Origin: an uncultured Myxococcales bacterium
GTDB taxonomy: Bacteria; Myxococcota_A; Polyangia; Fen-1088
Direction: 5' to 3'
DNA: 64,000 bases
Assembly (NCBI GenBank): GCA_964647025.1
Contig: CAZYFU010000001.1
Span: 66,964-130,963, forward strand
A program made the translations under genes and the position numbers. Below are positions 31,561-60,580 of the stretch, in pieces; the first letter of the stretch is position 1; the number at the start of each line of letters is the position of its first letter. Below the pieces are notes generated by a model. The model was not told the DNA's origin. It ran no database searches and was given only the letters and a program-made list of their open reading frames with translations.

Positions 31561-32031
31561 CTATGCTCGGACGCTGCCGGCCTTCGGACTGCGTGATGCG
31601 CGCAGCAGCTTCTCTTCGATTCGCCGCATCTCCTTGGCGGGCGCGGGGCGGTGGTGGTCGTGTCCGAAAAGGTGACACAAGCCGTGGATCGCGAGACGGG
31701 CCAGCTCCCCGGGTAGACGACGGCCACCGGCTCGGCGCTTGGCGGTCTCGACCGAGATCACGATGTCCCCGAGAAGGACATCGTCCCCCGCGGGGTCGCC
31801 GACGCCGCCTAGGTCGTGTTGATGAAAGCTAAGGACGTCGGTGGCACGGTCGAGCTTGCGATAGTCGCGGTTGAGGGCCCGGATCTCCTCGTCGCAAGTG
31901 AGCACGAGCGCGACCTGTGATCGTGAACGGCCCAGCACGCGCAGGGCCTCGCGCAAGCGGCGGGCCAGCACCTTGCCGTCCTGGGCGGAGACGAATGCGC
32001 GGGCCTCGGGCCTTATCAGGAGATCGATCAT
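31561..32031 (-). CDS. ybeY: rRNA maturation RNase YbeY
   Basis: Internal ATG of track ORF 31561..32556. Zinc motif HGLCHLFGHDH. Confidence 0.9.
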   Translation of the reverse strand: MIDLLIRPEARAFVSAQDGKVLARRLREALRVLGRSRSQVALVLTCDEEIRALNRDYRKLDRATDVLSFHQHDLGGVGDPAGDDVLLGDIVISVETAKRRAGGRRLPGELARLAIHGLCHLFGHDHHRPAPAKEMRRIEEKLLRASRSPKAGSVRA

Positions 32032-46153: not shown

Positions 46154-46224
46154 CGCGATCCATCCTAGCGTGCGGTCGGCGCGCTCGGTAGCTCGGGATG
46201 CCCGTTCGATGGAATTGTCCGGCG

Positions 46225-47973
46225 CTAGAAGCCGCGCGGCATCCGCGGCGAGTACGTCGCGTGCAGGAGGTGGTGCGCCTTCTCTCCGTTGGGCTCACCA
46301 AGGAACTCCTCGTAGACTGTGCGAATCGCGGGGTTCTTGTGCGCCTGACGAATGGGCAGTCCGCGATCCTCCGCGTACATCGCCTCGATGCGGCGCCGCC
46401 GGGTCTCGTCGTCGGTCGGCAACGGCTGGCCTCCGCCGCCAATGCAACCTCCGGGACACGCCATGACCTCGAGGAAGTGGATCTCCTCCTTGCCGGCCTT
46501 GATGTCGTCGAGCACCTTGCGCGCGTTGGCCAGGCCGTTCACCGCGCACAATTTGATCTCGCGGTCGCCGATCAGCACCGAGCCGCGCTTGATGCCGGCC
46601 GTCCCCCGCAGCGCGGGATACTCCAGCCTCGCCTCCGTCTTCGGATCGAGGACCGCGGCCACCGTGCGCAACGACGCCTCCATCATGCCGCCGGTCACAC
46701 CGAACATCAGACCTGCGCCGGTGGCGTCGCCCAGGATCGGATCGAAGTTCGACTCGGGCAGCGAGGGGACGTCGACCTCGTGCATGCGCAAGAGGTCGCC
46801 GAACTCGCGCGTGGTCAGCACCGCGTCCATCTCGGGCGTACCGTCGTCCAGCTTGTGCTCGGGGCGTTGGATTTCGAACTTCTTCGCCGAGCACGGCATG
46901 ATCGACACATTGAAGATCTTCTTCGGGTCGATGCCGTTGCGCTGGGCAAAGAAGGTCTTGGTCAAGGCGCCCACGATCTGCTGCGGCGACTTGGTCGAAG
47001 ACATGTTCGGGATGAACTCGGGGTAGAAGTGCTCCATGAACTTCACCCAGCCGGGCGAGCAGCTGGTGATGATCGGATAGGGCCCCCCCTTGTTGATGCG
47101 GGCGATGAGCTCGTGGCCCTCTTCCATGACCGCCATGTCCGCACCGAAGTCCGTGTCAAACACGTAGTCGAAGCCGATGCGGCGGAGCGCGGTCGGCAAC
47201 TTGCGGGTGAGCGGAACGCCCGGCGGAAGATTGTACAGCTCGCCGACGGTCGCGCGCACCGAGGGAGCGATCTGCACGATGACGATCTTCTCGGGATCTT
47301 CCAGCGCATCCGACACCTGCTCGAGGTAGCTCTTGTCGCGAATCGCGGCGACAGGGCACTTGAGCAGGCATTGCCCGCACAGCACGCACACGGTGTCCGC
47401 CAAGTCGCGGTCGAACGGCGGCAACACGGTGGTCGAGAAACCGCGGTTGACGAAGTCGAGGGCATAGACCCCCTGCACTTCCTTGCAGACCTTCACGCAC
47501 TTGCCGCACAAGATACAGAAGTCGGGGTGGCGCGTGATGGCCACCGACGACGTGTCGTTCGTGCCGTGGCGCTTCTCGCCCTCGTAGCGGATCTTGTCGA
47601 TCGAGTACTCGCGGCAGGCGTCCTGCAGGTTGCAGCGCTGGTTGCGGATGCAGGTCTGGCAGGCACGCGGATGGTTGGCGAGGATGAGCTCGATGATCGT
47701 ACGCCGAGCATCGCGCAGCTCCCGCGTGTTGGTACGCACCATCATGCCCTCCACGGCCGGGTACGAGCAGGCCGGCTCCAGCCGGGTGGAGCCGGTGGGG
47801 TTCGCCACCTCGACCACGCACAGACGGCACGCGCCCGAGACGGTCAGGTGCTTGTCGTAGCAGAGCGTCGGGATACGGATGCCGAGGGACTGCGCGGCTT
47901 CGAGCAAGGTCGAGCCAGCGGGTACGCGGACCGGCAGGCCGTTGATGGTCAGATTGACTTGATTGTCAGCCAT
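46225..47973 (-). CDS. hydA: [FeFe]-hydrogenase catalytic subunit, M3-type HydA (module 1)
   Basis: N-terminal [2Fe-2S] ferredoxin fold, His-ligated cluster motif (HPRACQTCIRNQRC) and 2x CxxCxxCxxxCP. H-domain motifs are TSCSPGW, MPCSAKKFE and EVMACPGGCIGGGGQP, followed by a small-subunit-like tail. Confidence 0.9.
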   Translation of the reverse strand: MADNQVNLTINGLPVRVPAGSTLLEAAQSLGIRIPTLCYDKHLTVSGACRLCVVEVANPTGSTRLEPACSYPAVEGMMVRTNTRELRDARRTIIELILANHPRACQTCIRNQRCNLQDACREYSIDKIRYEGEKRHGTNDTSSVAITRHPDFCILCGKCVKVCKEVQGVYALDFVNRGFSTTVLPPFDRDLADTVCVLCGQCLLKCPVAAIRDKSYLEQVSDALEDPEKIVIVQIAPSVRATVGELYNLPPGVPLTRKLPTALRRIGFDYVFDTDFGADMAVMEEGHELIARINKGGPYPIITSCSPGWVKFMEHFYPEFIPNMSSTKSPQQIVGALTKTFFAQRNGIDPKKIFNVSIMPCSAKKFEIQRPEHKLDDGTPEMDAVLTTREFGDLLRMHEVDVPSLPESNFDPILGDATGAGLMFGVTGGMMEASLRTVAAVLDPKTEARLEYPALRGTAGIKRGSVLIGDREIKLCAVNGLANARKVLDDIKAGKEEIHFLEVMACPGGCIGGGGQPLPTDDETRRRRIEAMYAEDRGLPIRQAHKNPAIRTVYEEFLGEPNGEKAHHLLHATYSPRMPRGF

Positions 47974-47991
47974 GGGGATATCTCCGATCCT

Positions 47992-50463
47992 CTAGGTGCG
48001 CGCCACGGCGCCGAAGGGACAAACCCGGTTGCACTCGCCGCACTTGATGCAGCGTTCGTTGTCGATGACGTAGATCTCGCCCTTCTCGCCGCTGATGCAC
48101 TGGACCGGGCACCCGCGCGCGCAAAGGCCGCAACCGCGACAGTTGGAAAGGATGTGGTAGGTGAGCAACGACTTGCACACGCCAGCCAAACAACGCGTAT
48201 CGCGAATGTGCGATACGTACTCGTGCTCGAAGTAGCGCAGCGTCGAGACCACGGGATTGGGCGCCGTCGCCCCCAGGCCGCAAGCCGAGGTGCGCGAGAT
48301 GACCATGGCCAAGTGGCGCAGCTCGGTGAGGTCGTCCATCTTGCCCTTGCCGTCGGTGATCCGCTCCAGGATCTCGAGCATGCGCTTGGTGCCTTCCCGG
48401 CAGGGAATGCACTTGCCGCAGGATTCGTGCTGGGTGAATCCGAGGAAGAACTTGGCGAAGGCGACCATGCAGGTGCCCGAGTCGGTGACCACGAGGCCGC
48501 CTGAGCCCATCATGGCCCCGAGCTTCTTCAGGCTCTCGTAGTCGACGGCCGCGTCCATGCGGTCAGCCGGGATACACGCGCCGGACGGGCCACCGGTCTG
48601 CGCGCCCTTGATCGACGAGCCTTCGGGCGCACCGCCGCCGATCTCGTTGAGGAGATCTCGCATGGGGATGCCCATGGGAACCTCGACGAGACCGGTGTTC
48701 CGGATCTTGCCCGAAAGCGAGAAGATCTTCGTGCCCGCGCTCTTGTCGGTACCCACGCCGCGGAACCACTCCACGCCCTTGCTGAGGATGAGCGGCACGT
48801 TGGCGAAGGTCTCCACGTTATTCACGCAGGTGGGATGTCCGGCGAAGCCGTGCTGGGCCGGGTACGGCGGCTTGTTGCGAGCCATACCGCGCTTGCCCTC
48901 GATGCTGGAGATCATGGCGGTCTCTTCGCCGCACACGAACGCACCGGCGCCCTGGACGATCTCCACGTGCAGGCTCTTGCCCGAGCCGAGGATGTTCGGT
49001 CCGACGAGACCGTACATGCGCGCCTGCGCCAGCGCGATCTCGAGACGCCGAATCGCCAGCGGGTACTCGGCCCGGCAGTACACGAACGCGTGCTCCGCGC
49101 CGATGGCGTAGGCCGCGATCAACATGCCCTCCAGCACGCGGTGGGGGTCGCCTTCGAGGATGCTGCGATCCATGAACGCCCCGGGGTCGCCCTCGTCGGC
49201 GTTGCAAATGATGTAACGGGTGGTATCGGTCTGCGCGCGGGCGATCTGCCACTTCTTCCCGGTTGGGAAGCCGCCACCGCCTCGACCGCGAAGACCCGCG
49301 GCCGTGACCTCGGCGACAATCTGGTCGGGCGTCATCTCCTTGAGCGCCCTGTAGAGCGCCTTGTAGCCGTCCCGGGCGAGGTACTCGTCGATGTTCTCCG
49401 GGTCGATCTTGCCGGTGTTGGAGAGCACGCGCCGCTCTTGCTTGCTGTAGAAGGGAATCGACGCCTCGGTCACGTGACCGGGGGCGTAGAGCAAGCGCTC
49501 GACGATTTGGCCGCCCAAGATGTGCTTCTCGACGATCTCGGGTACGTCGGTCGCTTTCACGCGGCAGTAGAAGGCCTCGAGCGGCAAGAGCTGCACGATG
49601 GGGCCAACCTCGCAAAGGCCCTGGCACCCGGTCTCGATGAAGTCGACCTTGCCCGACAGGCCCCGCTTCTTGAGCTCGCTCAAGAATGCCTTGTAGACCG
49701 ACGGCTCATCGCTGGCGTCGCACGTCAGGCCCTTGCACAGGAATGCCGTGGCGAGGAACTGCGGTGACTTGTGCTCGGCGAGGTTGTGCAGTTCCTCGCG
49801 GAACTTCACACACTGCTCGTCGTCGTGGCAAGACATGCCCTCCATGCGACAGAGCAGGAAGTTGGGGCACGGCGTGCCCGGCCGGGTCTGGCACTTGTCG
49901 CAACAACGCTCGAGGAAGGTGCGGCCGCGCACCTTCTCGGTCCCGGCAGGCTTGCGCGCGACCACCGGTTTCGGTGTGGTCAGGAGCTTGCGCGCCATCT
50001 TGCCGACCATCTTGGGTGTCACGCGGCCATGCACCTCGCCGTCGATCACGACGGCGGGAGCCACGCCGCAGGCACCGACGCAGTTCACCTTTTCGAGCGT
50101 GACCTTGCCGTCAGGCGTGGTGTCGCCGGCATTGATGCCGAGGACGGCCACGAGCTCGCCCAACAGATCCTCCGAGCCCTTCACGTTGCACGCGGTCCCA
50201 TTGCAGACCTGGATGACGTGCTCGCCCTGCGCCTTCAGGCGGAACTGCGAATAGAAGGTCGCGACACCGTAGACGCGTGCCTCGGCAAGGCGCATGGCAT
50301 CTGCGACGTAGTCGAGAGCGTCGGTGGGGAGGTAGCCGTAAAGCTCCTGCGTCTTCTGCAGGACGGCAATGAGGTTGCGCGGCTTGAGGTCGACCCAATT
50401 GGCGAGCAAGTCGCGAAGCGGCGCCAGGTCAGTCACAGGAGGTGCAGCGGTGGTCTGTGTCAT
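47992..50463 (-). CDS. hydB: fused NuoE-like (HydC) + NuoF-like (HydB) flavoprotein subunit (module 1)
   Basis: Residues 1-160 are a NuoE-type [2Fe-2S] domain (CNGTAC...CVGAC). These are followed by a 7-Cys linker motif and a thioredoxin-like [2Fe-2S] domain. The NuoF core comes next (GRGGGGFPTGKKW, ESCGKCIPCREGT), then a C-terminal 2x[4Fe-4S]. Confidence 0.9.
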   Translation of the reverse strand: MTQTTAAPPVTDLAPLRDLLANWVDLKPRNLIAVLQKTQELYGYLPTDALDYVADAMRLAEARVYGVATFYSQFRLKAQGEHVIQVCNGTACNVKGSEDLLGELVAVLGINAGDTTPDGKVTLEKVNCVGACGVAPAVVIDGEVHGRVTPKMVGKMARKLLTTPKPVVARKPAGTEKVRGRTFLERCCDKCQTRPGTPCPNFLLCRMEGMSCHDDEQCVKFREELHNLAEHKSPQFLATAFLCKGLTCDASDEPSVYKAFLSELKKRGLSGKVDFIETGCQGLCEVGPIVQLLPLEAFYCRVKATDVPEIVEKHILGGQIVERLLYAPGHVTEASIPFYSKQERRVLSNTGKIDPENIDEYLARDGYKALYRALKEMTPDQIVAEVTAAGLRGRGGGGFPTGKKWQIARAQTDTTRYIICNADEGDPGAFMDRSILEGDPHRVLEGMLIAAYAIGAEHAFVYCRAEYPLAIRRLEIALAQARMYGLVGPNILGSGKSLHVEIVQGAGAFVCGEETAMISSIEGKRGMARNKPPYPAQHGFAGHPTCVNNVETFANVPLILSKGVEWFRGVGTDKSAGTKIFSLSGKIRNTGLVEVPMGIPMRDLLNEIGGGAPEGSSIKGAQTGGPSGACIPADRMDAAVDYESLKKLGAMMGSGGLVVTDSGTCMVAFAKFFLGFTQHESCGKCIPCREGTKRMLEILERITDGKGKMDDLTELRHLAMVISRTSACGLGATAPNPVVSTLRYFEHEYVSHIRDTRCLAGVCKSLLTYHILSNCRGCGLCARGCPVQCISGEKGEIYVIDNERCIKCGECNRVCPFGAVART

Positions 50464-50721
50464 GATTGCACGAGCTCGGTAGTGGCGATGCAGCGTCTAT
50501 CCCAACCGCACCAGCCTCGCAAGTAGGGATCTGCCCTGCGCGACTGGATCGGCCATTTCAAGACACGCAACACCTATTTGAGTGATTAGAAATCGGTCAT
50601 CATCGGCAGATACGCGTGCAGACTGAATTGCGGCCGGGCCAAGGTAGAGCTCTTCAGTCGTCGGGGGGTGCATCTGGCCCAAATACGCGGTATGTAGGGA
50701 CTAACAAAGGGGGGTCAGGTC

Positions 50722-51024
50722 ATGGTGAAAGTGGCGCTGCTGGTACGACTGGAAGCGAAGCCGGGGCGAGAGAAGGACGTCGAGCAGTTCCTACAGAAGG
50801 GACTGCCCCTCGTGGAGGCCGAACCGTCGACGGCTGCCTGGTTCGGCATCCGCATGGGAACCAACACATTCGGGATCTTCGACGCCTTCCCAGATGACGA
50901 AGCCCGCAATGCACATCTCTCCGGTCGGGTAGCAGAGGCATTGATGGCAAAAGCCGGCGACCTGCTCGTGCAGCCGCCTGCGATCGAGAAGCTCGACGTG
51001 ATCGCCGCCAAGTTGCCAAGCTGA
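50722..51024 (+). CDS. ABM (antibiotic biosynthesis monooxygenase-like) domain protein
   Basis: 100-aa ferredoxin-like alpha+beta protein with G-rich SD. Divergent from module 1 and convergent with the hybrid kinase. Confidence 0.65.
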   Translation: MVKVALLVRLEAKPGREKDVEQFLQKGLPLVEAEPSTAAWFGIRMGTNTFGIFDAFPDDEARNAHLSGRVAEALMAKAGDLLVQPPAIEKLDVIAAKLPS

Positions 51025-51026
51025 TC

Positions 51027-52487
51027 CTATGCCTTTGCAAGCGTGATCCGGAAGACCGAGCCCACGCCGATGGTGCTCTCGGCCGCTATCGTACCGCCCG
51101 CGCGCTCGACCAGGCGCTTCACGATGGCAAGACCGAGTCCGTTGCCGTCGATGTCGCGGGTCTCTGACCGCTTCTCCCGAAAGAACTCCTCGAACAGGTG
51201 TGGCAAGTTCTCGGGCTTGATGCCGATGCCGGAGTCTGCGACCTCGACCAGGATCTTGCCGCCGGCCTGTTTCGCGGACACCTGCAAGCTGCCGCCATCT
51301 CGGCCGTACTTGATGGCGTTGCCGACCAGGTTGCCGAGGACGGTCTTGAAGTCCTCGTCGCCGATGCTCGCCCGTGGCAGGTTGGCTTCGACGAGCACGG
51401 TCGCGTCCAACTGGCGGGCGGCGATCCTGGGTCGATACAAGTCGATGGTCATCGCCACGGCGGTCGCGACGTCGGTCGGCGGCTCGCTGGCGTTTGCCGT
51501 TCGCTCGAGGTCGATGCGCGAAAGCGACAGCAACTCGCCGATCAGCTCCACCAGACGATCGATGCGGTGGTCGGCGCGTTCGAGGTACGGCAAGTACGGT
51601 TCGAGCTTGTCGCCCAAGCTCTTCTCGGTGGCCACCTCGAGCAAGCTGCGGATGGCGCCCAACGGCGACCGGAACTCGTGCACCATGGTCCGGATGAAGC
51701 GCGGCTTCTCCATGGCCATCTTGCGCAGCAAGGTCACGTCCGCGAGGGTGAGAATCCGGCCCAGGGCTGAGCCGTCGTTGCCGTGAAACGTGACCACGCT
51801 GGCAAAGAAGATGCTATCGCCGATGGTGAGCTCGGCGACCCGCTGCTCGGGCTGATCCTTCTCGGACAACAGGCTGGCCAGCCCCGCCAAGCTGTCGTCG
51901 GTCAGCACGGTGTCGATGGGCATGCGCAAAAGCTCGGCGGAGGTCCGCCCCAAGAGCTTCGCCATCACATCATTGGCCAGCGCCACCTCGCGCTCGCGAT
52001 TGATCACCAAGACCGCGTCGTGTAGCGATGCCACGAGGGACGCGGTTTGGCTCTTCTCCGTGGCCAGCGCAAGCAGGTTGGCCTCGTTCTCCTTGCGCAG
52101 CTTCTCGGCTTCTTCTCTGAGCTGCTTGTGTCGGGCAAGCGTCTCGATCACGCCGAGCAAATCGTCGGGAGAGAACGGCTTCGGCAAGAAGAAGTCCACG
52201 CCTTGCCTGGTCGCCGCGATCGCCGTGTCGATGTTGGCGTACGCCGTGATCATGCAGGTGGAAGTGGCGAGCTTGCGGCTGCGCATCGACGACAACAGCG
52301 TCAGCCCGTCGATGTCGGGCAACTGGTAGTCGATCAGCGCGACGTCGAAGTCGCATTTCTCGAGCAGATCGAGGGCCTGGTGTCCGTTCTCGGCGACCTC
52401 GACGGCATACCCTTCCAGCTCGAGGATCTGGCGGATCCCCGAGCGGACACCGTACTCATCGTCGATGACCAGGACCCTCGCCGGCAT
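51027..52487 (-). CDS. REC-PAS-histidine kinase (hybrid, receiver at N-terminus)
   Basis: REC (VLVIDDE...ALIDYQLPDIDG), a PAS-like middle region, H-box (VHEFRSPLGAI), N-box (GNAIKY), and G-boxes (DSGIGI, GNGLGL). Confidence 0.85.
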   Translation of the reverse strand: MPARVLVIDDEYGVRSGIRQILELEGYAVEVAENGHQALDLLEKCDFDVALIDYQLPDIDGLTLLSSMRSRKLATSTCMITAYANIDTAIAATRQGVDFFLPKPFSPDDLLGVIETLARHKQLREEAEKLRKENEANLLALATEKSQTASLVASLHDAVLVINREREVALANDVMAKLLGRTSAELLRMPIDTVLTDDSLAGLASLLSEKDQPEQRVAELTIGDSIFFASVVTFHGNDGSALGRILTLADVTLLRKMAMEKPRFIRTMVHEFRSPLGAIRSLLEVATEKSLGDKLEPYLPYLERADHRIDRLVELIGELLSLSRIDLERTANASEPPTDVATAVAMTIDLYRPRIAARQLDATVLVEANLPRASIGDEDFKTVLGNLVGNAIKYGRDGGSLQVSAKQAGGKILVEVADSGIGIKPENLPHLFEEFFREKRSETRDIDGNGLGLAIVKRLVERAGGTIAAESTIGVGSVFRITLAKA

Positions 52488-52490
52488 GGG

Positions 52491-52910
52491 CTAGCCCGCG
52501 GCCGCGACCTTGCCCAGCTCGAGCTTCTCCTCGACGACCTTGAGGAGCTGTCGGCCGGTCACCGGCTTGTCGAGGAACGCATCCAGCTTGATCCAGTCCT
52601 TGAGCGCCGCGATCTCCGCGGAGAACTTGTGGCCGGTGGCGGAGGCAACGCCCGAGAGCATGAGGATCGGCACCTTTGCCATAGCTGGATCCTGGCGAAT
52701 CTTGCGGCTCAACATGAACCCGGAGTCGTAGTGCTCCATCATGAGATCGAGGACGATTACGTCGGGCTTCTCTTGCGAGACGCGCTCGAGTGCGCCATCC
52801 ACACGGTCCAGGGTCACCACCTCGAAGCCGCGCGAGCTGAAGAATGCGGTTTGCGCGGAAAGAAAGTCGCGATCGTCATCGACAAACAGAATCTTGGGGC
52901 TTTTCGCCAT
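52491..52910 (-). CDS. single-domain response regulator (REC only)
   Basis: ILFVDDD...VIVLDLMM...LDKP. AAGGAG SD 8 nt upstream. Overlaps the tail of the upstream kinase by 35 nt. Confidence 0.85.
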   Translation of the reverse strand: MAKSPKILFVDDDRDFLSAQTAFFSSRGFEVVTLDRVDGALERVSQEKPDVIVLDLMMEHYDSGFMLSRKIRQDPAMAKVPILMLSGVASATGHKFSAEIAALKDWIKLDAFLDKPVTGRQLLKVVEEKLELGKVAAAG

Positions 52911-54900
52911 GAAGCGTACTCCTTCTCAACGATTGGGTTTTCGGTAACTCGATGGTGAACGTGGTCCCGGTGCCAGAATCGGAATCGAACCAGATGCGAC
53001 CGTTGTGCATCTTCACGATGCCGTAGGCGATGGGAAGGCCCAGCCCAGTACCACGTCCAAGGCTCTTGGTGGTGAAGAATGGCTGAAAGACTTTGTCGCG
53101 CGCTTCGGGGGCGATGCCGCGGCCCTCGTCGCTGACACAGATGTGGACCCGGCCGGGCACGCCATCGTCGACGCAGAACAGACGGACTCTGCCCGCCCTG
53201 CCCTCCATCGCCTCGATGCCATTCTTGACCAGGTTGATCAGGACTTGGCCCATTTGGTCCTTGTCGAGATCGACCGCGAGATCCGGCGGCGCCTCGCAGG
53301 TGATGCGCAGCCCCGGTCCGGTGTCGCGCAAGGCGAACAGCGACTCTTCCACGACGCGCTGGAAGAGCTCGGCAAGGTTCGTGCGCTCGAGCTGAACCCG
53401 GTTTTGTCTGGCGAAGTCGAGCAGGTTGCCGATGATCTTCTTGCAGCGGTTGGCCTCGTCGACGAGCAGCTTGAGGTCGTGGTCGAGGTCGGGGCGTTCC
53501 TTGAGCTTGCGCGCGAGCAGGTTGGTGTAGAGGAGGATGGTTCCAAGAGGGTTGTTCAGCTCGTGCGCGACGCCGGCCGCCATCTGTCCCATCGAGGCCA
53601 GCTTCTCGGTGTTGATGAGGTGGCGGTGGATATCTCTGAGGTTCGGCCACGGAACGTTCAGCTCATGGCAGACCCGCTCGGCCTGCTCGATCATGAAGGG
53701 CAAGCACATGGCCTCTTCCGCCAGGCCTCGATGCACCGCGACCGCCTTGGCACGACAGGTCTCGTACCCGCAGGCACCACAGTTGAGCTCGTCTTCGGCG
53801 GTGAACTTGTTGGTGCGGGCAAGGATCACGCGGATCTCCTGCTCGGTGGGCTGTTTCAGGCGCTGGTCGTCGACCGTGAACTTGCGGTGCAGATCGACCG
53901 GTGGGATCGCGCTGGGATCCTCGCTAGGTTCGGACATGCGCGACTTCACGTACTCGGCAACGAGCCGCTTGCGCTGTGGCCGCCGCTCCACCCCCCGCAT
54001 GGCGGGGCCATTGTAGCAGCCATGGCACATGAGTGGCTCGATGAACAACGGTTCGGGATCGTCCGGCCGAAGATCGTCCAAGGCATCGAGGATCTCGGCC
54101 GCGCCAGACAGCACCATCACCTCGGTGTTGAGCGAGCTGCGCTCGAGCCCAGCGCCTTTGAGCAGACCGCCGACCAGTGGGTACAGTCGGCCGTTGCCCG
54201 CGCGCGGAGGATCGAATTCGCTCGGCGTGGCCGAGCTGATCTTGATACCGCGCTCGATGAACATGCGTCGCATTTCATCGAAGGTCAGCACCGCATCCAC
54301 GACCCGTGGAACCTGGGGGTCGCGCATCTCCTGCTTCTTCGAGACGCAGGGTCCGATGAAGACGCACGCGTGATCGGGGCCGTGCAGTGCCTTCACCGCC
54401 ATCGCGGTTGCGATCATCGGGGAAACGATGGGCACCAGGCACCCGACCAGATCGGGCAAGTACTTGCGGACGTACTCGACCACCGCCGGACACGCGGTCG
54501 CGAGCCGCGTCCCCGTCGGGTGCTCCTTGATGAAGGCGCGATAGGCCTGGTTGGTGAGATCGGCGCCGAAAGCGACCTCGACGACCTTCGCGAAGCCGAG
54601 GGCACGCAGAGCGCCAACCAGTCGAGCCGGGTCATGTCCAGAGTCGTCCGCCGGGAAAGCCGGGGCAACCATCGCCACCACCGGCTTTCCCTTGGAGAGC
54701 AGCTCGAGGACTTGCTCGGTGCTGCTCTCGTAGGCCTTGGCACCCTGTGAACAGACCACCGTGCAGTTGCCGCACGCGATGCAACGCTCTTTGACGACGG
54801 AGGCCTGGCCCTCGACGATCTTGATCGCCTTGGCCGGGCACTCGCGTACGCACGAGTAGCAGCGGCGGCAGTTCTGCAGGATGGTCTCGATCACACCCAT
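52876..54900 (-). CDS. [FeFe]-hydrogenase-like H-domain fused to histidine kinase (HydS-like putative H2/redox sensor kinase)
   Basis: N-terminal 2x[4Fe-4S] ferredoxin motifs. Degenerate H-domain motifs (LATACPAV, GPCVSKKQE, EPLMCHGCYNG). Cx2Cx4Cx16C motif at C374-C399. Then HisKA (AHELNNPL) and HATPase (NLVKNGIEA, DEGRGI, GTGLGL). Confidence 0.85.
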   Translation of the reverse strand: MGVIETILQNCRRCYSCVRECPAKAIKIVEGQASVVKERCIACGNCTVVCSQGAKAYESSTEQVLELLSKGKPVVAMVAPAFPADDSGHDPARLVGALRALGFAKVVEVAFGADLTNQAYRAFIKEHPTGTRLATACPAVVEYVRKYLPDLVGCLVPIVSPMIATAMAVKALHGPDHACVFIGPCVSKKQEMRDPQVPRVVDAVLTFDEMRRMFIERGIKISSATPSEFDPPRAGNGRLYPLVGGLLKGAGLERSSLNTEVMVLSGAAEILDALDDLRPDDPEPLFIEPLMCHGCYNGPAMRGVERRPQRKRLVAEYVKSRMSEPSEDPSAIPPVDLHRKFTVDDQRLKQPTEQEIRVILARTNKFTAEDELNCGACGYETCRAKAVAVHRGLAEEAMCLPFMIEQAERVCHELNVPWPNLRDIHRHLINTEKLASMGQMAAGVAHELNNPLGTILLYTNLLARKLKERPDLDHDLKLLVDEANRCKKIIGNLLDFARQNRVQLERTNLAELFQRVVEESLFALRDTGPGLRITCEAPPDLAVDLDKDQMGQVLINLVKNGIEAMEGRAGRVRLFCVDDGVPGRVHICVSDEGRGIAPEARDKVFQPFFTTKSLGRGTGLGLPIAYGIVKMHNGRIWFDSDSGTGTTFTIELPKTQSLRRSTLHGEKPQDSVCR

Positions 54901-54915
54901 GACCCGGACTCTCGT

Positions 54916-56637
54916 CTACTCTTCGGCGACTGCCCCCTCGCGCCTGCGGTCCACGTACTTGCGGTGCAGCAGGTGGTGGCTGATCTCCCCAAGCGGCTTC
55001 CCGAGCATGCTGCTGTACAGCTCGGTCACCTCTTCGTTCTCGTGCGAAACCTTCAAGGTCGCACGACGGTCGGCATCGTAGATGCGCTCGAGGCGCACGC
55101 GGATGCTCTCCGGATCCGTATCGTAGGGTTGACCGCCGCCGCCGATGCAGCCGCCGGGGCAGGTCATGACCTCGATGAAGTGCAGGTTCGAGTTGCCCTT
55201 CTTGAGCGGGTCGAGCATCGGCTGCAGCCGGCCGATGCCGTTGACGATCCCGAAGTTCAGCGTGGTGCCGGCCACGTCGATCGAGAAGCTCTTCAGGCCT
55301 TCGAGGCCACGCGCCTCCTCGATCTTGAAGCCGCCCTTGAGCTCGGTGCCCGTGAGCATCTTGTGCGCGGTCCGGATGGCCGCCTCCATGACGCCGCCGG
55401 TGCCGCCGAACAACCGCCCGGCGCCGCTGGCCGACGAGAACGGCGGATCCAGCGTGCCCTGCTCGGTCATCTCGTTGATGTCGATGCCAAAGCGTCCGAA
55501 CAGCTGCTCGATCTCGCGCGTGGTGAGCACGAAGTCGACGTCGCCCAGGGTGCTGGCCTCGACCTTCTTCGCCGTGCACGGCATGAACGACACGCACACC
55601 AGCTTCTTCCCGCCGAGGTCGCGGAACTTCGGGTACGTGTCTTTGATGAGCGCCGCCGCCATCTGCTGAGGGGACTTGCAGGTGGACAGGTGCGGAATGA
55701 GGTCCGGGCGGTGCTTCTCCACGAACTCGATCCAGCCAGGCGAGCAGCTGGTGAACATGGGCAGGGGACCACCGGTCTGCACGCGTTTGATGAGCTCGGA
55801 CACCTCCTCCATGATGGTGAGGTCGGCGGCGAAGGCCGTGTCGAACACGGCGCCGAAGCCGATCCTCTTGAGGGCCGCAGCCAGGCGGAGCAGCATGGTC
55901 TTCACCGAGCTGGCCTGGGCCTTCTCCATCAGCGTCGCGGGCACGGCCGGTGCGACCTGCGCCACCACGATGGTGTTCGGATCGCCGAGCGCCTTCACCA
56001 CACCCTCGACATGGCTCTTCTCCATCAGGGCCGCGGTCGGGCAGACGCGCGTGCACTGGCCGCAGGAGATGCAGGTCGACACGTTGATGCCGTCGTGGAA
56101 GCCCGGGCCGACGTGGGTCTTGATGCCACGCTCGATGAAATCGATGGCGCCGATACCCTGCACCTGGTGACAGACGGTCACGCAGCGTCCACACAGGACG
56201 CACTTGTTGGCGTCGCGCACCATGGCCGGCGACGACAGGTCGATGGGGTGGTTCTTCTTGAGACCGCGGTAACGACGCTCACGCACGCCCAGCTCGCTGG
56301 CGATCTGGGCGAGATCGCAGTTCTGGTTGCGCTCGCAGACCAAGCAGTCGTTGGGGTGGTTCGCGATGAGCAGCTCGGTGATGTTGCGCCGAACCGATTG
56401 CACGCGGGGCGAGCGGGTCTTGATCTTCTGCCCGTCCTTGGCCTCCAACGTGCAGCTCGTCTGCAAGCGCGGCATGCCTTCGACCTCGACCAGACACATG
56501 CGGCAGGCCGCATCCGACTTGCACGCCCAATCCAAGGCACACAGGTGCGGAATCGAGATGCCTGCCCGGCCGGCAGCCGAGAGCACCGTCTCGCCGGGGG
56601 TAAATTCAACTTCTTTGCCGTCGACAACGATACTCAT
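54916..56637 (-). CDS. hydA: [FeFe]-hydrogenase catalytic subunit, M3-type HydA (module 2)
   Basis: Internal ATG of track ORF 54916..56958, overlapping the hydB stop (ATGA). Same domain order as module 1, with motifs TSCSPGW, MPCTAKKVE and EVMTCPGGCIGGGGQP. Confidence 0.9.
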   Translation of the reverse strand: MSIVVDGKEVEFTPGETVLSAAGRAGISIPHLCALDWACKSDAACRMCLVEVEGMPRLQTSCTLEAKDGQKIKTRSPRVQSVRRNITELLIANHPNDCLVCERNQNCDLAQIASELGVRERRYRGLKKNHPIDLSSPAMVRDANKCVLCGRCVTVCHQVQGIGAIDFIERGIKTHVGPGFHDGINVSTCISCGQCTRVCPTAALMEKSHVEGVVKALGDPNTIVVAQVAPAVPATLMEKAQASSVKTMLLRLAAALKRIGFGAVFDTAFAADLTIMEEVSELIKRVQTGGPLPMFTSCSPGWIEFVEKHRPDLIPHLSTCKSPQQMAAALIKDTYPKFRDLGGKKLVCVSFMPCTAKKVEASTLGDVDFVLTTREIEQLFGRFGIDINEMTEQGTLDPPFSSASGAGRLFGGTGGVMEAAIRTAHKMLTGTELKGGFKIEEARGLEGLKSFSIDVAGTTLNFGIVNGIGRLQPMLDPLKKGNSNLHFIEVMTCPGGCIGGGGQPYDTDPESIRVRLERIYDADRRATLKVSHENEEVTELYSSMLGKPLGEISHHLLHRKYVDRRREGAVAEE

Positions 56638-58655
56638 ACGGACGCCCTTTCTTCTTCTCCCGGTTGAACCATGTGGATGGAGTGCTTGGGGCACGCGGTC
56701 ACGCAAGTGCCGCAGCCGATGCAACGGTCGACGATGATGTAGTGCGCTTGCTTGCGCTCGCCGACGATGGCGTTGCTTGGACACGATTTCTTGCAGATGA
56801 GGCAGCCGATGCAGGTCGCGTTGTCGACCTGGTACACCGCCAGCCCTTGGCACTGCCCGGCCGGGCAGCGTTGATCGATGACGTGCGATTCGTACTCGTG
56901 GCGGAAGTAGCGCAGGGTCGACAGCACGGGGTTGGCTGCCGTCTGACCGAGGCCGCACAGCGAGGCCTCCTTGACCGTCGAGGCGAGCTCTTGCAGGTGC
57001 AAGACGCCGCGGATGCGCTCGAGGCGCTTCTCCTCGTCACCAACGGGACGCTCGGTGATCGAGGTGAGGATCTCCAGCATTCGGGTGGTGCCTTCGCGAC
57101 ATGGGGTGCACTTGCCGCAGGATTCGTTGCGGATGAACTCCATGAAGAAGCGAGCGACGTCGACCATGCAGGTACGCTCGTCCATGACGACCATACCGCC
57201 CGAGCCCATCATCGCACCGAGCTCGATGAGCGTGCCGTAGTCGGTGGGCGTGTCGAAGTAGTCGCTCGGGACGCAGCCGCCCGAGGGACCGCCCATCTGC
57301 ACGGCCTTGATCTTGTGGCCGGGCAGCGCGCCGCCGCCGATGTCCTCGACGATAGTGCGCAGCTTGATGCCGACCGGGACTTCCACGAGGCCTGTGTTGC
57401 AGATGGTGCCGGAGAGGGCGAACACCTTGGTACCGGCTGCCTTGCCGAGGCCCAGATCCTGGAAGTACTGGGCGCCGCGGTCGATGATGACCGGAACGTT
57501 GGCCAGCGTCTCGACGTTGTTGAGCACGGTGGGCTTGCCGTGAAGACCGGCGATGGCGGGATACGGGGGACGCGGACGGGGCATGCCGCGGCCACCTTCG
57601 ATGCTGGCAAGAATCGCGGTCTCTTCACCGCAAACGAAGGCGCCTGCGCCCTGCTTGATGGTGATGTCGAACGAGAACAGGCTGCCGAGGATGTTGTTGC
57701 CGAGCAGACCGACGCGACGGAGCTGCGCGATGGCTTGCGAGAGGCGCTCGATGGCGAGCGGATACTCGGCGCGGCAGTAGATGTAGCCCTTGCTCGCGCC
57801 GATCGCGTACGCGGCGATGAGCATGCCTTCGATGACGAAGAAAGGATCGCTCTCGAGGACCGCGCGATCCATGAACGCGCCGGGGTCGCCTTCATCGGCG
57901 TTGCAGATGAGGTACTTCTGCGCGCGCGGCGTCTGGCGGGCGATGTTCCACTTCTGTCCCGTGGGGAAGCCTGCACCGCCGCGGCCACGCAGGCCGGATG
58001 CGAGGACTTCGTTGCAGACCTCTTCCGGGGTCATGTTGCACAGGGCGCGCGCCGCGGACTTGAAGGCGCCGGCGGCCAAAGCGGAATCTAGGTTCGACGG
58101 GTCGATGATACCGGCGTTGCGGAGCACGACCTTCACCTGGCGCTTGAAGAAGTCGGTGCTGTTGATCTCGGGGATGTCCGACCAATTCGGGCCAGCCTCG
58201 CCATGACGAGCGAAAAGGAAACTGTTGCGCAGGTTCTTCTTGATGAAGACCTCGTCGAGCAGTTGGTCGATGTTGCCTGGGTTGATGTCGGCGTAGGCGA
58301 GGCGCGGGCTGTCAGGCAACTGCACGTCCACGAAGAGCTCGCGCTGGCAGTAACCCACGCAGCCGGTCTCGATGATCTCGGCGGCGATCTTGTTCTGCTC
58401 CAGGAACTGGACGATGCGGGCGATGACCTTGGTCGAGCCGTTGGCACGGCCGCAGGTACCGGCGCCCACGAAGATCAGCGTGCCCTCCCCGCCGCGACGA
58501 ACCTTGGCGAGCAGGCTCTGCCGGGCCTTCCGGCAGGACTCGCTGTCGTGACAAACGGGTCCCTCGGAGATGCACTTGATGAGGTCACGACACGGGCTTC
58601 CCGGCCGGTGCGTGCACCGGTCGCAACATGGGGCGATGAGACTACTTGTCCGCAT
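56634..58655 (-). CDS. hydB: NuoF-like flavoprotein subunit HydB (module 2)
   Basis: N-terminal 7-Cys motif (CCDRCTHRPGSPCRDLIKCISEGPVCHDSESC) and a thioredoxin-like [2Fe-2S] domain. NuoF core (GRGGAGFPTGQKW, ESCGKCTPCREGT) and C-terminal 2x[4Fe-4S]. Confidence 0.9.
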   Translation of the reverse strand: MRTSSLIAPCCDRCTHRPGSPCRDLIKCISEGPVCHDSESCRKARQSLLAKVRRGGEGTLIFVGAGTCGRANGSTKVIARIVQFLEQNKIAAEIIETGCVGYCQRELFVDVQLPDSPRLAYADINPGNIDQLLDEVFIKKNLRNSFLFARHGEAGPNWSDIPEINSTDFFKRQVKVVLRNAGIIDPSNLDSALAAGAFKSAARALCNMTPEEVCNEVLASGLRGRGGAGFPTGQKWNIARQTPRAQKYLICNADEGDPGAFMDRAVLESDPFFVIEGMLIAAYAIGASKGYIYCRAEYPLAIERLSQAIAQLRRVGLLGNNILGSLFSFDITIKQGAGAFVCGEETAILASIEGGRGMPRPRPPYPAIAGLHGKPTVLNNVETLANVPVIIDRGAQYFQDLGLGKAAGTKVFALSGTICNTGLVEVPVGIKLRTIVEDIGGGALPGHKIKAVQMGGPSGGCVPSDYFDTPTDYGTLIELGAMMGSGGMVVMDERTCMVDVARFFMEFIRNESCGKCTPCREGTTRMLEILTSITERPVGDEEKRLERIRGVLHLQELASTVKEASLCGLGQTAANPVLSTLRYFRHEYESHVIDQRCPAGQCQGLAVYQVDNATCIGCLICKKSCPSNAIVGERKQAHYIIVDRCIGCGTCVTACPKHSIHMVQPGEEERASV

Positions 58656-59115
58656 GGGCCTCTCCTTCAGCTACGGTGTCGAGGAGACGGTCCAGCTTCT
58701 CCACGTCGAGATGGCCGTAGAACTCGCCATCCAATTTGATGACCGGCGCGATCGAGCAGGCCCCGAGGCAAGCCACCGTGATGACGGTGAACTTGTTGTC
58801 CGGCGTATTGCCGTTGGGCTTCAGGTTCAACTTGCGCTGCAGGTGCTGCGCGAGCTTCAAGCTCTGCTTCACGTGGCAGGCAGTGCCCCGGCACACTTCG
58901 ATGACGTGCGTGCCCTTGGGCGCGAAACGAAACTGGTTGTAGAAGGTCGCCACGCCGTAGACGCGGCTCTCGGGAACGCCGATCGCCTCGGCCACTTTGG
59001 CCATGGCGTCTTGCGAGACATAGCCTTCTTTCGCCTGAATCTCCTGCAAGATGGGGATGAGGTGCTCTTTGCAGAGCTCCTCATGTCCCGCAATGATCTG
59101 ATCCACGTGACACAT
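58642..59115 (-). CDS. hydC: NuoE-like [2Fe-2S] subunit HydC (module 2)
   Basis: NuoE signature (GVATFYNQF, CRGTACHV, CLGACSIAP). Overlaps the hydB start by 14 nt. Confidence 0.9.
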   Translation of the reverse strand: MCHVDQIIAGHEELCKEHLIPILQEIQAKEGYVSQDAMAKVAEAIGVPESRVYGVATFYNQFRFAPKGTHVIEVCRGTACHVKQSLKLAQHLQRKLNLKPNGNTPDNKFTVITVACLGACSIAPVIKLDGEFYGHLDVEKLDRLLDTVAEGEAHADK

Positions 59116-59181
59116 ACTGCTTACCTCGGGTGCTGCTCGGTGGGTGGTGGGAGGAGGAGTGGTGGGAAAAACTCGGATGGG

Positions 59182-59601
59182 CTACGCGGTGGCGGCCTTC
59201 GTCGCCTCGGCTTCCGCGAGAAGCTGGCGAATGGTCGCGAGAAGCTCAGGCATCGCGACCGGCTTCTTCATCAGCTTCGCGGCCGGCCAGTCGCGGCCAT
59301 TGATGAAGTCGAAGGACTCCCGCTTCGCAGCCATGTGATCCATGAAGCCCGTCATGAGGACGATGGGGATCTGGCGCGTGGCAGGGTCGGCTTCGAGCTT
59401 GTAGGCGACGGTGAAGCCCTCGGCGTCCGTGTCCATCATGACGTCGAGAACAATCAGGTCGGGCTTCTGGGCGGAGATGGCCTTGAGCGCGTCGGTACCG
59501 TTGTGCTCCGTGGCCACCTCGAAGCCGTTGGCTTCGAGCACGGCTTTGGTTGACGCAACGAGATCCTTGTCATCGTCTACGAGCAAAACGCGCTTCCTCA
59601 T
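59182..59601 (-). CDS. single-domain response regulator (REC only), first gene of module-2 operon
   Basis: VLLVDDD...LIVLDVMM...MKKP. It is a paralog of the REC at 52491-52910. Confidence 0.85.
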   Translation of the reverse strand: MRKRVLLVDDDKDLVASTKAVLEANGFEVATEHNGTDALKAISAQKPDLIVLDVMMDTDAEGFTVAYKLEADPATRQIPIVLMTGFMDHMAAKRESFDFINGRDWPAAKLMKKPVAMPELLATIRQLLAEAEATKAATA

Positions 59602-59710
59602 GGCTGTCTCCTTATGGTTGGTCCTTCAACTGGATCGGCAGGTCATTTGAGAACTTCGGTTTGAGCCTCGGTGCATTCGTGAACAGTTGCTCTCCGGTTA
59701 TCGGATTCAC

Positions 59711-59726
59711 AGTGAAAACTTTCACA
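59711..59726 (-). promoter_or_regulatory. Rex-box-like palindrome upstream of the REC-hydCBA operon
   Basis: AGTGAAAACTTTCACA matches TGTGAA-N4-TTCACA at 15 of 16 defined or flanking positions. It lies ~110 nt upstream of the 59601 ATG and directly downstream of rex. Confidence 0.55.
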
Positions 59727-59779
59727 GTTTTGCAAAATCTCTAGAGCCCCCCCCGACGCACACCATCCATCGTCTTGGG

Positions 59780-60460
59780 CTACTTCTTGCTGAGGAACGA
59801 GAGCTTCTCTAGCTTGGCCGCGATATCGATGCTCTCGACGTAGCCTCCTGGTGCTGGGGTGATGCGCTTGGGGACGAAGTTCAGAATGGAAAGGACGCCG
59901 CACTTGGCTAAGCGGTCCACCAACTGCTGCAGCCCGGGTGGACGGCACGCCAGCACCGCCACTCGGACGTTGAACTCGGGCAAAACCTTGTCCATCTGGT
60001 CAACGTGGTAGCAGCGACGGCCAGCGAAAACCTTGCCCGCCTTGTCGGAATCCAGGTCGAATATGACGCCGATGTGAAATCCGCGCTCTTCGAAGCCACG
60101 GTAGGCCAGCAGCGATCGGCCCAAGTCGCCAACGCCAAAAAGCGCGACCGTCTGCGGCATATCCGTGCCGAGAATGCGGCTGATGGTCCGGGTGAGCTGG
60201 TAGACGTTGTATCCCCGGCTGATGTTGCCAAAGGACCCGAAGCTGGACAGATCGCGCCGCAGTTGGGCCGGCGTTACACCAACCATCTCGGCCAGTTGCT
60301 GCGAGTAGACATACTCGACTCCGTCGTAGTGCAGCTCCTCCAGCACCTTGCGGTAGACGCTCAGACGCTCCACCGTGGATACCGAAACGTGGCGGTCGCC
60401 CTTCCTTGCCGCATCAGCAGCTTGGCCTTCGGTCTCCAGGGTCGCCGTCGCCTCATCCAC
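59780..60460 (-). CDS. rex: redox-sensing transcriptional repressor Rex
   Basis: wHTH (TVERLSVYRKVL, SQQLAEMVGVTPAQLRRDLS) and a Rossmann NADH site (LFGVGDLGRSL). I prefer the GTG at 60460 because a promoter-like element lies just upstream; the track start at 60514 is also GTG. Confidence 0.85.
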   Translation of the reverse strand: MDEATATLETEGQAADAARKGDRHVSVSTVERLSVYRKVLEELHYDGVEYVYSQQLAEMVGVTPAQLRRDLSSFGSFGNISRGYNVYQLTRTISRILGTDMPQTVALFGVGDLGRSLLAYRGFEERGFHIGVIFDLDSDKAGKVFAGRRCYHVDQMDKVLPEFNVRVAVLACRPPGLQQLVDRLAKCGVLSILNFVPKRITPAPGGYVESIDIAAKLEKLSFLSKK

Positions 60461-60464
60461 GATG

Positions 60465-60481
60465 TTGTGATTATCTTCACA
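60465..60481 (-). promoter_or_regulatory. Rex-box-like palindrome overlapping the rex -10 region
   Basis: The minus strand reads TGTGAAGATAATCACAA, which is TGTGAA-N4-ATCACA with one mismatch to TTCACA. Confidence 0.5.
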
Positions 60482-60498
60482 GCACCTCGGCCAGTCAA
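60470..60498 (-). promoter_or_regulatory. candidate sigma70 promoter of rex (near-leaderless)
   Basis: On the minus strand: TTGACT (60498-60493), a 17-nt spacer, then GATAAT (60475-60470). The GTG at 60460 follows 9 nt later. Confidence 0.45.
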
Positions 60499-60580
60499 GC
60501 CCTATTTTGTGCACACAGGTCGTCTTAATGCAGCAAGGGGCCGCGCAAAATCCCCGAAAGCACTGCGCCTCCCATCCAGT

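Follow-up and report, generated by a model that had tools for sequence, protein, structure and literature searches.

Two HydABC-type [FeFe]-hydrogenase modules in a Polyangia-like soil bacterium, one of them encoded with a putative H2/redox-sensing phosphorelay

Introduction

The question posed by the group C and D 'sensory' [FeFe] hydrogenases is whether they sense H2 and, if they do, how the signal leaves the protein. Some of these proteins are associated with a histidine kinase: HydDB lists [FeFe] group C1 as 'histidine kinase-linked (putative)' (PMC5037454), and a 2024 survey of Hydrogenedentota described a sensor gene, bfuT, in some cases with a histidine-kinase domain, lying directly beside group A3 hydrogenase genes. 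The survey found Caldithrix abyssi to be organised in this way too, and some Bacteroidota to have a pair of sensor genes (PMC11406978). The locus analysed here lies in a 64-kb stretch of DNA (hereafter the window) from contig CAZYFU010000001.1 of an uncultured Myxococcales bacterium. It holds two modules of HydABC-type [FeFe]-hydrogenase genes, the first of them joined to hydS::HK, a gene for a sensory-type H-domain fused to a histidine kinase. Its sensor class is already catalogued, as HydDB group C and as BfuT, and the locus is an ordinary member of a widespread kind. As in the bfuT clusters, H-domain and histidine kinase are encoded directly after a group A3 hydA; loci of this type in Hydrogenedentota (L023 and L029), Calditrichaceae (L021) and Bacteroidales (L069-L080) encode full-length homologues of 41-47% identity, in the same gene order. 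It differs from them in its host, a Polyangia-like soil bacterium represented by a metagenome-assembled genome (MAG), and in the addition of rex and a receiver gene, REC1, in front. The survey makes no mention of response regulators, REC-PAS-kinase partners or Rex operators (PMC11406978), and in the related literature we have not found described the near-universal presence of REC and REC-PAS-kinase partners, the lack at every locus of a DNA-binding output linked to the cassette, or the Rex operators that accompany it across several phyla.

Two characterised, putatively sensory proteins without a kinase provide the closest biochemical comparisons. The sensory signature, in the residue numbering of Clostridium pasteurianum CpI that serves as reference throughout, comprises replacement of C299, a small residue at M353, variability at M497, loss of the proton-transfer residues and a Cx2Cx4Cx16C motif (PMC10055695, PMC8163306). 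HydS of Thermotoga maritima (TmHydS; group C, M2f) shares with HydS::HK two N-terminal [4Fe-4S] clusters, the H-cluster ligands, the C299 to Ala and M353 to Gly changes, the lost proton pathway and the C-terminal Cx2Cx4Cx16C cluster, and it too is encoded among hydrogenase genes; but TmHydS ends in a PAS domain without a kinase, whereas HydS::HK has no PAS and its HisKA and HATPase domains follow directly on the cluster, and TmHydS has Ser at the M497 position and CxxxC in motif P3 where HydS::HK has Leu and CxxC. HydS of Thermoanaerobacter mathranii (TamHydS; group D, M2e) is similar in lacking PAS, in the M497 to Leu change, in the C-terminal cluster and in adjoining a trimeric bifurcating hydrogenase (PMC8163306); it differs in having no fused transmitter, being flanked by a separate HATPase-like gene and an AraC regulator, and in having Ser rather than Gly at the M353 position. 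HydS::HK combines the M353 to Gly change of TmHydS with the M497 to Leu change of TamHydS. Neither of these two proteins has an obvious transmitter (PMC8163306, PMC13104023); in the kinase-fused proteins the transmitter is part of the sensor, so that H2 sensing could be read directly as autophosphorylation and transfer to the neighbouring receivers.

The logic of a slow hydrogenase that acts as H2 sensor and signals through a histidine kinase to hydrogenase genes is also that of the [NiFe] HoxBC-HoxJ-HoxA system (group 2b; PMC5037454), which, however, is unrelated in metal site and fold, keeps its kinase apart from the sensor, and has in HoxA a DNA-binding output; no such output is encoded here. 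As to the enzymes themselves, the HydABC complexes of Acetobacterium woodii, Thermoanaerobacter kivui and T. maritima (7q4v, 8a6t, 7p5h) have the same subunits and cofactor domains, to which the present locus adds a CCxxC prefix on HydB, a HydC-HydB fusion in module 2, and sensor and relay genes in the operon. Finally, Rex regulons that include hydrogenase genes are known in anaerobic Firmicutes (for example Caldicellulosiruptor bescii, PMC6391272; consensus TTGTGAAW4TTCACAA, PMC2883068), with rex beside its target and promoter palindromes of the same consensus as those reported below; here, by contrast, they occur in genomes labelled Myxococcota, Syntrophales, Thermoleophilia, Verrucomicrobiota and Bacteroidales, and are coupled to a sensor cassette.

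Results

All coordinates are positions in the window, and genes were identified by Pfam and NCBIfam profile searches, with curated cut-offs where available. A sequence-only reading of this DNA had placed ten open reading frames (ORFs) of the two modules on the minus strand. All ten are present at the coordinates it gave, and Pfam and NCBIfam bear out the domain content that it claimed, save for one label, 'ABM', given to a divergent ORF (see below). They form a sensor-linked module 1, in which rex is followed by REC1-hydC-hydB-hydA-hydS::HK-REC2 and a REC-PAS-histidine kinase gene (RPK), and a module 2 consisting of a hydC::hydB fusion and a further hydA, hydA2 (Table 1). We consider, with moderate confidence, that these encode two Bfu-type HydABC [FeFe] hydrogenases under promoters of their own, and that one is co-transcribed with its own H2/redox-sensing phosphorelay. 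The gene identities, the conservation of catalytic and ligand residues, the synteny, the gene overlaps, the Rex boxes, the helices of an AlphaFold2 (AF2) model, and the maturase genes found beside the cassette in one relative all support this reading; that the hydrogenase modules are 'wired to' the sensor, relay and Rex, in the terms of the sequence-only reading, is what we infer from the sequence.

Table 1. Features of the two hydrogenase modules and of the adjoining DNA (positions in the 64-kb window)
Feature	Position	Strand	Evidence
rex, NADH/NAD+-sensing repressor	59780-60460	-	NF003995 194.7 bits (cut-off 126); Put_DNA-bind_N and CoA_binding
REC1, single-domain receiver, first of the module-1 string	59182-59601	-	Response_reg sole Pfam domain
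hydC1, NuoE-like [2Fe-2S] subunit	58642-59115	-	PF01257 163 bits; NF005722 149 bits (cut-off 141)
hydB1, NuoF-like flavoprotein	56634-58655	-	Pfam/NCBIfam domains; PDB alignment
hydA1, M3-type catalytic subunit	54916-56637	-	TIGR02512 (group A) 432 bits (cut-off 406)
hydS::HK, sensory-type H-domain and histidine kinase	52876-54900	-	Fer4, Fe_hyd_lg_C, PF04060, HisKA, HATPase_c (Pfam)
REC2, single-domain receiver, presumed cognate of hydS::HK	52491-52910	-	REC sole Pfam domain
RPK, REC-PAS-HisKA-HATPase second-tier kinase	51027-52487	-	Pfam domains
hydC::hydB fusion, module 2	47992-50463	-	Pfam/NCBIfam domains; PDB alignment
hydA2, M3-type catalytic subunit, module 2	46225-47973	-	NF040763 'NADH-dependent [FeFe] hydrogenase' 784 bits (cut-off 765)
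rex promoter-like site, TTGACT-17-GATAAT	60498-60470	-	sole sigma70-like site in 45800-60800
Rex operator-like palindrome CTGTGAAGATAATCACAA, over rex -10 hexamer	60465-60482	-	2 mismatches to TTGTGAAN4TTCACAA
Rex operator-like palindrome CTGTGAAAGTTTTCACTG, rex-REC1 gap	59710-59727	-	3 mismatches to the same consensus
Promoter-like element CTTGCGA-N..-GTTGnGATAGACGCTG, upstream of hydC::hydB	50491-50523	-	near-invariant in the window, L001, L003 and L008
Divergent 100-aa ORF (earlier 'ABM')	50722-51024	+	PDB 2pd1 match (hypothetical protein), E 1e-32
iorA	61993-63603	+	NCBIfam/Pfam support

The genes of module 1 are closely packed. From the verified coordinates follow the junctions that had been proposed for it: an ATGA overlap of hydB1 with hydA1 (56634-56637), a 14-nucleotide (nt) overlap of hydC1 with hydB1 (58642-58655), and spacings of 15 nt between hydA1 and hydS::HK (54901-54915) and of 3 nt between REC2 and RPK (52488-52490). 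To these is added a 35-nt overlap of hydS::HK with REC2 (52876-52910), which recurs in relatives. Most starts are preceded by a Shine-Dalgarno-like sequence, and no plausible intrinsic terminator was seen within the gene string. This tight same-strand packing, with its overlaps, suggests co-transcription of enzyme, sensor and relay, as had been claimed. Two starts were set inside longer frames: that of hydA1 at ATG 56637, not at the GTG of a longer ORF reaching 56958, because the N-terminus then aligns with HydA of T. maritima, T. kivui and A. woodii; and that of rex at GTG 60460, because the longest ORF, reaching 60514, would contain both the promoter-like site and a Rex box.

Both modules have the composition of NuoE-like, NuoF-like and M3-type HydA subunits that defines Bfu-type enzymes (HydABC, HydDB group A3), in agreement with the sequence-only reading; profile matches and full-length alignments of the B subunits concur on this. 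HydB1 consists of a CCxxC prefix, an N-terminal [2Fe-2S] domain, a flavin mononucleotide (FMN)/NADH site, a [4Fe-4S] domain and a C-terminal 2x[4Fe-4S] domain, and its residues 60-664 align end to end with the B subunits of the solved bifurcating complexes 9n5u, 7t2r, 7q4v, 8a6t and 7p5h (E 1e-197 to 1e-175). The NuoE-like subunit is separate in module 1 (hydC1); in module 2 it forms residues 27-159 of the fusion, and is followed by a CCxxC prefix (182-225), a [2Fe-2S] domain (248-325), a NuoF region with the FMN/NADH site (353-756) and a 2x[4Fe-4S] domain (768-820), the whole of residues 238-822 aligning end to end with 7t2r_B (E 4e-246), 7q4v_B and 8a6t_B.

The two catalytic subunits share one domain set (Fer2_4, NADH-G_4Fe-4S_3, Fer4, Fe_hyd_lg_C, Fe_hyd_SSU), and their identity is upheld by scores above cut-off, HydA1 with the group A model TIGR02512 and HydA2 with NF040763. 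The best PDB match of HydA1, also end to end, is HydA1 of 8a6t (E 2e-160), with 7q4v and 7p5h next. H-cluster motifs P1-P3, the M3 clusters and the proton pathway are present in both, including the equivalents of CpI C299, E279, E282, R286, S319, M353, M497 and K358. The P1 motif reads TSCSPGW in both proteins, with Ser replacing CpI Cys300, as it does in HydA1 of 7q4v; TSCSP-type motifs are common in group A3 (PMC11406978). Cys300 of CpI coordinates the [4Fe-4S] part of the H-cluster, and in the literature on the TSCSP motif we found no explanation of how the cluster is ligated when this residue is Ser. Between modules, identity is 41% for HydA, 48% for HydB and 44% for HydC. A recent duplication was considered and ruled out by these values of 41-48% and by the existence, for each module, of closer relatives in other phyla; the divergence marks modules 1 and 2 as old, distinct sub-types.

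One or both enzymes might be plain NADH-dependent, or H2-oxidising and NAD+-reducing, rather than bifurcating. A non-bifurcating NADH-dependent HydABC has been described from Syntrophomonas wolfei, and the two behaviours look alike in sequence; moreover HydA1, at 683 bits, falls below the NF040763 cut-off of 765. Yet the stated cause of non-bifurcation is loss of the N-terminal [2Fe-2S] and C-terminal 2x[4Fe-4S] domains (PMC11406978), and both HydB proteins keep both; the end-to-end alignment of both with bifurcating enzymes and the proximity of the ferredoxin-reducing iorAB genes point the same way. We regard a non-bifurcating enzyme as somewhat unlikely.

The third H-domain, that of HydS::HK, is of the sensory type, as had been supposed: the ligands are kept, the proton relay is lost, a Cx2Cx4Cx16C cluster is present and the transmitter is complete. 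Two [4Fe-4S] motifs occupy residues 1-55 (C11-C50) and the H-domain residues 72-299, with H-cluster cysteines C137, C185, C292 and C295; C374, C377, C382 and C399 make up the C-terminal cluster, within a PF04060 match at 372-401; and some 37 residues beyond C399 begins the transmitter, with HisKA from residue 437 (H446) and HATPase_c from residue 546. An H-E-x-x-N motif is present in the transmitter; beside the phospho-His this is typical of bifunctional HisKA enzymes. The PAS domain of the M2f and characterised group C proteins was not found in HydS::HK by Pfam, and homology of the third H-domain to BfuT of the Caldithrix type suggests that it belongs to the C3 set of PMC11406978.

We aligned 81 full-length homologues of HydS::HK, drawn from many phyla. 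No variation was seen (81/81) at any of the 20 cluster cysteines, the four H-cluster ligands among them, at H446, in the N, G1 and G2 boxes or at the equivalent of K358; the residues that hold the [2Fe] site (equivalents of P231, S323-P324 and E361) are invariant or nearly so. At the C299 position are found Ala, Ser, Pro or Thr and never Cys (0/81; A136 here), while the M353 position is Gly (G183) and the M497 position Leu (L290) in every homologue. Residues of the proton path (equivalents of E279, E282, R286 and S319) are not retained in HydS::HK. With its paired [4Fe-4S] motifs, H-cluster cysteines, altered C299, M353 and M497 positions, C-terminal cluster and adjoining group A hydrogenase, HydS::HK has the sequence features of a HydS protein.

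As a rival to H2 sensing, the H-domain kinase might use its five Fe-S sites to sense the redox state of the cell, be it as reduced ferredoxin, as O2 or as the integrity of the clusters, the H-domain then being an electron entry module or a structural relic. The invariance of the three accessory [4Fe-4S] sites and of an additional cysteine, Cys486, in a kinase helix, together with the missing canonical proton pathway, could be taken in that sense, and the H-cluster motifs of some group C1 proteins have been doubted (PMC11406978). A relic, however, would not be expected to keep the H-cluster cysteines and the equivalents of K358, P231, S323-P324 and E361 near-invariant, and in TmHydS and TamHydS the same substitutions go together with a functional H-cluster and a slow turnover of H2 (PMC10055695, PMC8163306). 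We therefore think it unlikely that redox sensing replaces H2 sensing.

In the AF2 model of HydS::HK the H-domain is predicted with confidence, and three helices (399-413, 418-436 and 438-465), predicted at low confidence, link C399 of the C-terminal cluster to H446. The second kinase dimerisation helix carries the pair R485-C486 (53443-53448, minus strand), invariant in 81/81 homologues and, to our knowledge, not a usual feature of HisKA. Its cysteine may be redox-active, or may add a ligand close to the C-terminal cluster.

The catalytic residues of the sensor's partners are conserved. An acidic pocket, a phospho-acceptor Asp and a Lys are present in REC1, in REC2 and in the receiver of RPK: REC1 has the equivalents of CheY D12, D13, D57 and K109; across 74 orthologues of REC2, D11-D13, D55 and K115 are kept in no fewer than 90%, and the same level is reached across 76 orthologues of RPK by D53, H270 and the N, G1 and G2 boxes. 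Taken with the transmitter described above, HydS::HK and REC2 have the sequence features of a HisKA kinase and its presumed cognate receiver. Pfam shows no DNA-binding or other output domain in REC1, REC2 or RPK, and the earlier description of the receivers as REC-only, in a cluster without a DNA-binding output, stands.

Upstream of module 1 are two palindromes resembling Rex operators, one overlapping the rex -10 hexamer and one in the rex-REC1 gap (Table 1). Since 0.5 such palindromes are expected by chance per window, finding two is not significant in itself; what counts is that their positions are conserved. A Rex-like site lies in the rex-REC1 gap of all loci with the order rex-REC1-hydC (14/14), and of the 13 orthologous loci whose sequence reaches far enough upstream, 11 have one ahead of rex; in five Bacteroidales loci that have rex at the downstream end, such a site is found just upstream of hydC. 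The rex -10 hexamer has its end at 60470, 10 nt before the GTG start (60460). The arrangement suggests that rex is autoregulated and its mRNA near-leaderless. The sequence-only reading had Rex acting on this locus: this is supported for rex and module 1, where the operators are conserved, and not for module 2, for which the best site, in 50464-50721, has 5 mismatches and is at background level. Module 2 has a promoter-like element of its own, near-invariant in four genomes that differ in the surrounding DNA; it may be a promoter or a regulator-binding site.

To see how general the arrangement is, we scanned one genome per species; 362 encoded relatives of HydS::HK, of which the best 80 loci were analysed, and the denominators below are the loci among these 80 with enough flanking DNA. 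The cassette hydCBA-hydS::HK-REC-(REC)-REC/PAS/HK is colinear in about 60-70 of the 80, in more than 10 phyla. Its closest relatives, at 77-89% identity, are in MAGs labelled Myxococcales or delta proteobacterium, at least nine in number; the remaining carriers include Syntrophales, Thermoleophilia, Planctomycetota, Spirochaetota, Ignavibacteria, Bacteroidales, KSB1, Hydrogenedentota, Verrucomicrobiota, Calditrichaceae and others. Directly upstream of the sensor gene is hydA (60/66), with hydB further upstream (55/58); a REC-only gene follows directly downstream (70/71), and REC-PAS-HK within 1.5 kb (69/71). A REC-only gene less than 350 nt upstream of the hydC start is less frequent (20 of 71 loci), as is rex within the locus (24/80). 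Many lineages have a second HydABC module a few kb downstream, and the hydC::hydB fusion serves elsewhere as the sensor-linked module itself. The in-operon H-domain kinase with no DNA-binding partner, the duplication and the fused architecture had been taken as unusual; because colinear cassettes and second modules recur across phyla, they are the norm of the family. In a large protein collection the sensor is represented by more than 7,600 clusters at E <= 1e-20, and its best 120 database homologues have the same architecture, no PAS and generic names only.

Several relatives carry additional genes. On a Syntrophales chromosome (L016, 14080-18420) the cassette is followed by a Lyase_1 (aspartase/fumarase-like) gene, a gene for HydF (HydF_dimer, HydF_tetramer and GTPase domains) and a HydG-like gene, encoding a 470-residue radical-SAM/BATS protein. 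In two loci of distant phyla (L020, 15606-17767; L037, 14350-16618) genes for DRTGG, PHP, stand-alone HATPase_c and small [2Fe-2S] proteins stand ahead of the second module; for this reason that module is to be counted a sub-type other than module 2 of the window. A DNA-binding regulator was looked for in this gap and rejected, the gap holding the genes just named instead. Six Bacteroidales loci (L059, L069, L073, L077, L079 and L080) have a second, divergent, kinase-less H-domain gene upstream of hydC (about 3.9-5.2 kb, minus strand), and their rex lies at the cassette's downstream end; a second sensor gene is also what PMC11406978 reports.

Discussion

On the reading that we favour, of two Bfu-type hydrogenases one of which is made with its own phosphorelay, a rise in NADH/NAD+ would release Rex from its operators, and module 1 would be made along with the sensor. 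The slow H-cluster of the sensor would equilibrate with H2, and electrons would pass to the C-terminal cluster, situated at the start of the helix towards His446; depending on its redox state, this cluster would toggle the dimer between kinase and phosphatase modes. Phosphate would then go to REC2, to the RPK receiver or to both, and RPK, adding a signal borne by its PAS domain, would pass the result to REC1 or to an unlinked regulator, with the outcome that hydrogenase expression or activity is matched to the level of H2. Module 2 may be a target of the relay or a mere neighbour.

Several observations weigh against this reading. H2 sensing is still called putative even for TmHydS and TamHydS (PMC13104023), and our literature search found no experiment on any kinase-fused member. 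The AF2 model has a predicted local distance difference test score (pLDDT) below 50 for residues 400-454, so that the coupling of cluster to helix is no more than suggestive, although a low score there is to be expected when a dimeric helix bundle is modelled from a single chain. At none of the 80 loci does the cluster encode a DNA-binding regulator or any other output. Between module 2 and the relay we found no link beyond adjacency, and no Rex box. As for the enzymes, sequence alone cannot separate bifurcation from plain NADH dependence, and hydE, hydF and hydG are absent from the 64-kb window, as the sequence-only reading had already stated.

The gene order allows a different role for the sensor. 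HydS::HK could be a fourth subunit of HydABC, for which the name 'BfuT' is in use (PMC11406978), tuning activity directly in a post-translational control in which the receivers are mainly phosphate sinks. The position of its gene right after hydA (60/66), the REC-only genes that head 20 of 71 hydC modules, and the lack of a DNA-binding output at every locus would all suit such a role. Physical association is purely putative, however, and the solved HydABC complexes have no such subunit; the complete transmitter, the conserved receivers and the second kinase point instead to a genuine phosphorelay. We judge a fourth subunit improbable.

A more speculative variant keeps the relay and moves its output. 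The H-domain kinase, one or two REC-only proteins and the REC-PAS-kinase might make up a self-contained H2-responsive phosphorelay with a non-transcriptional output, in which phosphorylated REC or the sensor docks on HydABC, for example at the CCxxC prefix of HydB, and within seconds switches the enzyme from H2 production to uptake or back, or gates bifurcation. The genes of this quartet always lie within an operon for a bifurcating hydrogenase and in no case with a DNA-binding regulator. We would not put much weight on this variant, its chances being slim; if it were true, a hydrogenase would for the first time be seen under post-translational two-component control. That the hydrogenases are inactive and the locus a recently acquired, unexpressed island, as the absence of hydEFG from the window and the cassette flanks that differ among close relatives (iorA in L003 aside) might suggest, is very improbable, since codon usage in the cluster (G+C at third codon positions, GC3, 0.82-0.90) is like that of the rest of the window, the catalytic and ligand residues are all intact, the cassette is kept in the Myxococcales-type MAGs at the identities given above, and maturase genes stand beside it in L016.

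In itself the locus is of modest value: it adds an uncultured Polyangia-like soil lineage to the carriers of the cassette, a hint that members of a group usually regarded as aerobic may live by fermentation and evolve H2. The interest lies in the kinase-fused family as a whole, much less in this single locus. An observation that speaks for our reading comes from Melioribacter roseus, whose [FeFe] proteins MROS_2480-2482 and MROS_2487-2488 were detected under fermentation only (PMC5492636); the four-gene gap in the numbering fits the cassette and may make this a candidate match.

Flanking genes and minor observations

A Myxococcota background, as first proposed, fits both the labels of the closest MAGs and a 90%-identity cluster of the SRP54 protein that includes a Polyangia protein. 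Of the flanking genes, pepT scores above its NCBIfam cut-offs and the GT87 gene 39 bits against a cut-off of 25. The iorAB genes had been placed next door to the cluster; iorA is there, and since an identical iorA on another contig is followed by a POR-domain gene (iorB), the iorAB label holds. The flanking genes tested are not beside the cassette in close relatives, with the exception of iorA in L003; there is for this reason no case for vertical inheritance of the chromosomal position.

The short divergent ORF between the modules, once labelled 'ABM', has no Pfam (E 0.01) or NCBIfam match, and the label is not upheld, the PDB entry in Table 1 being its sole match. A copy of 76% identity is present in L001; in L003 and L008 it is absent and the gap measures about 105 nt. 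Relative to these two loci it is an insertion, and it probably lies outside the system.

Other signalling or redox genes in the window encode a two-FHA-domain protein (13944-14909), a PAS-GGDEF diguanylate cyclase (27379-28512), a VKOR-DsbA fusion (28555-29796) and a GAF-HD/HD_5 protein (32028-33680).

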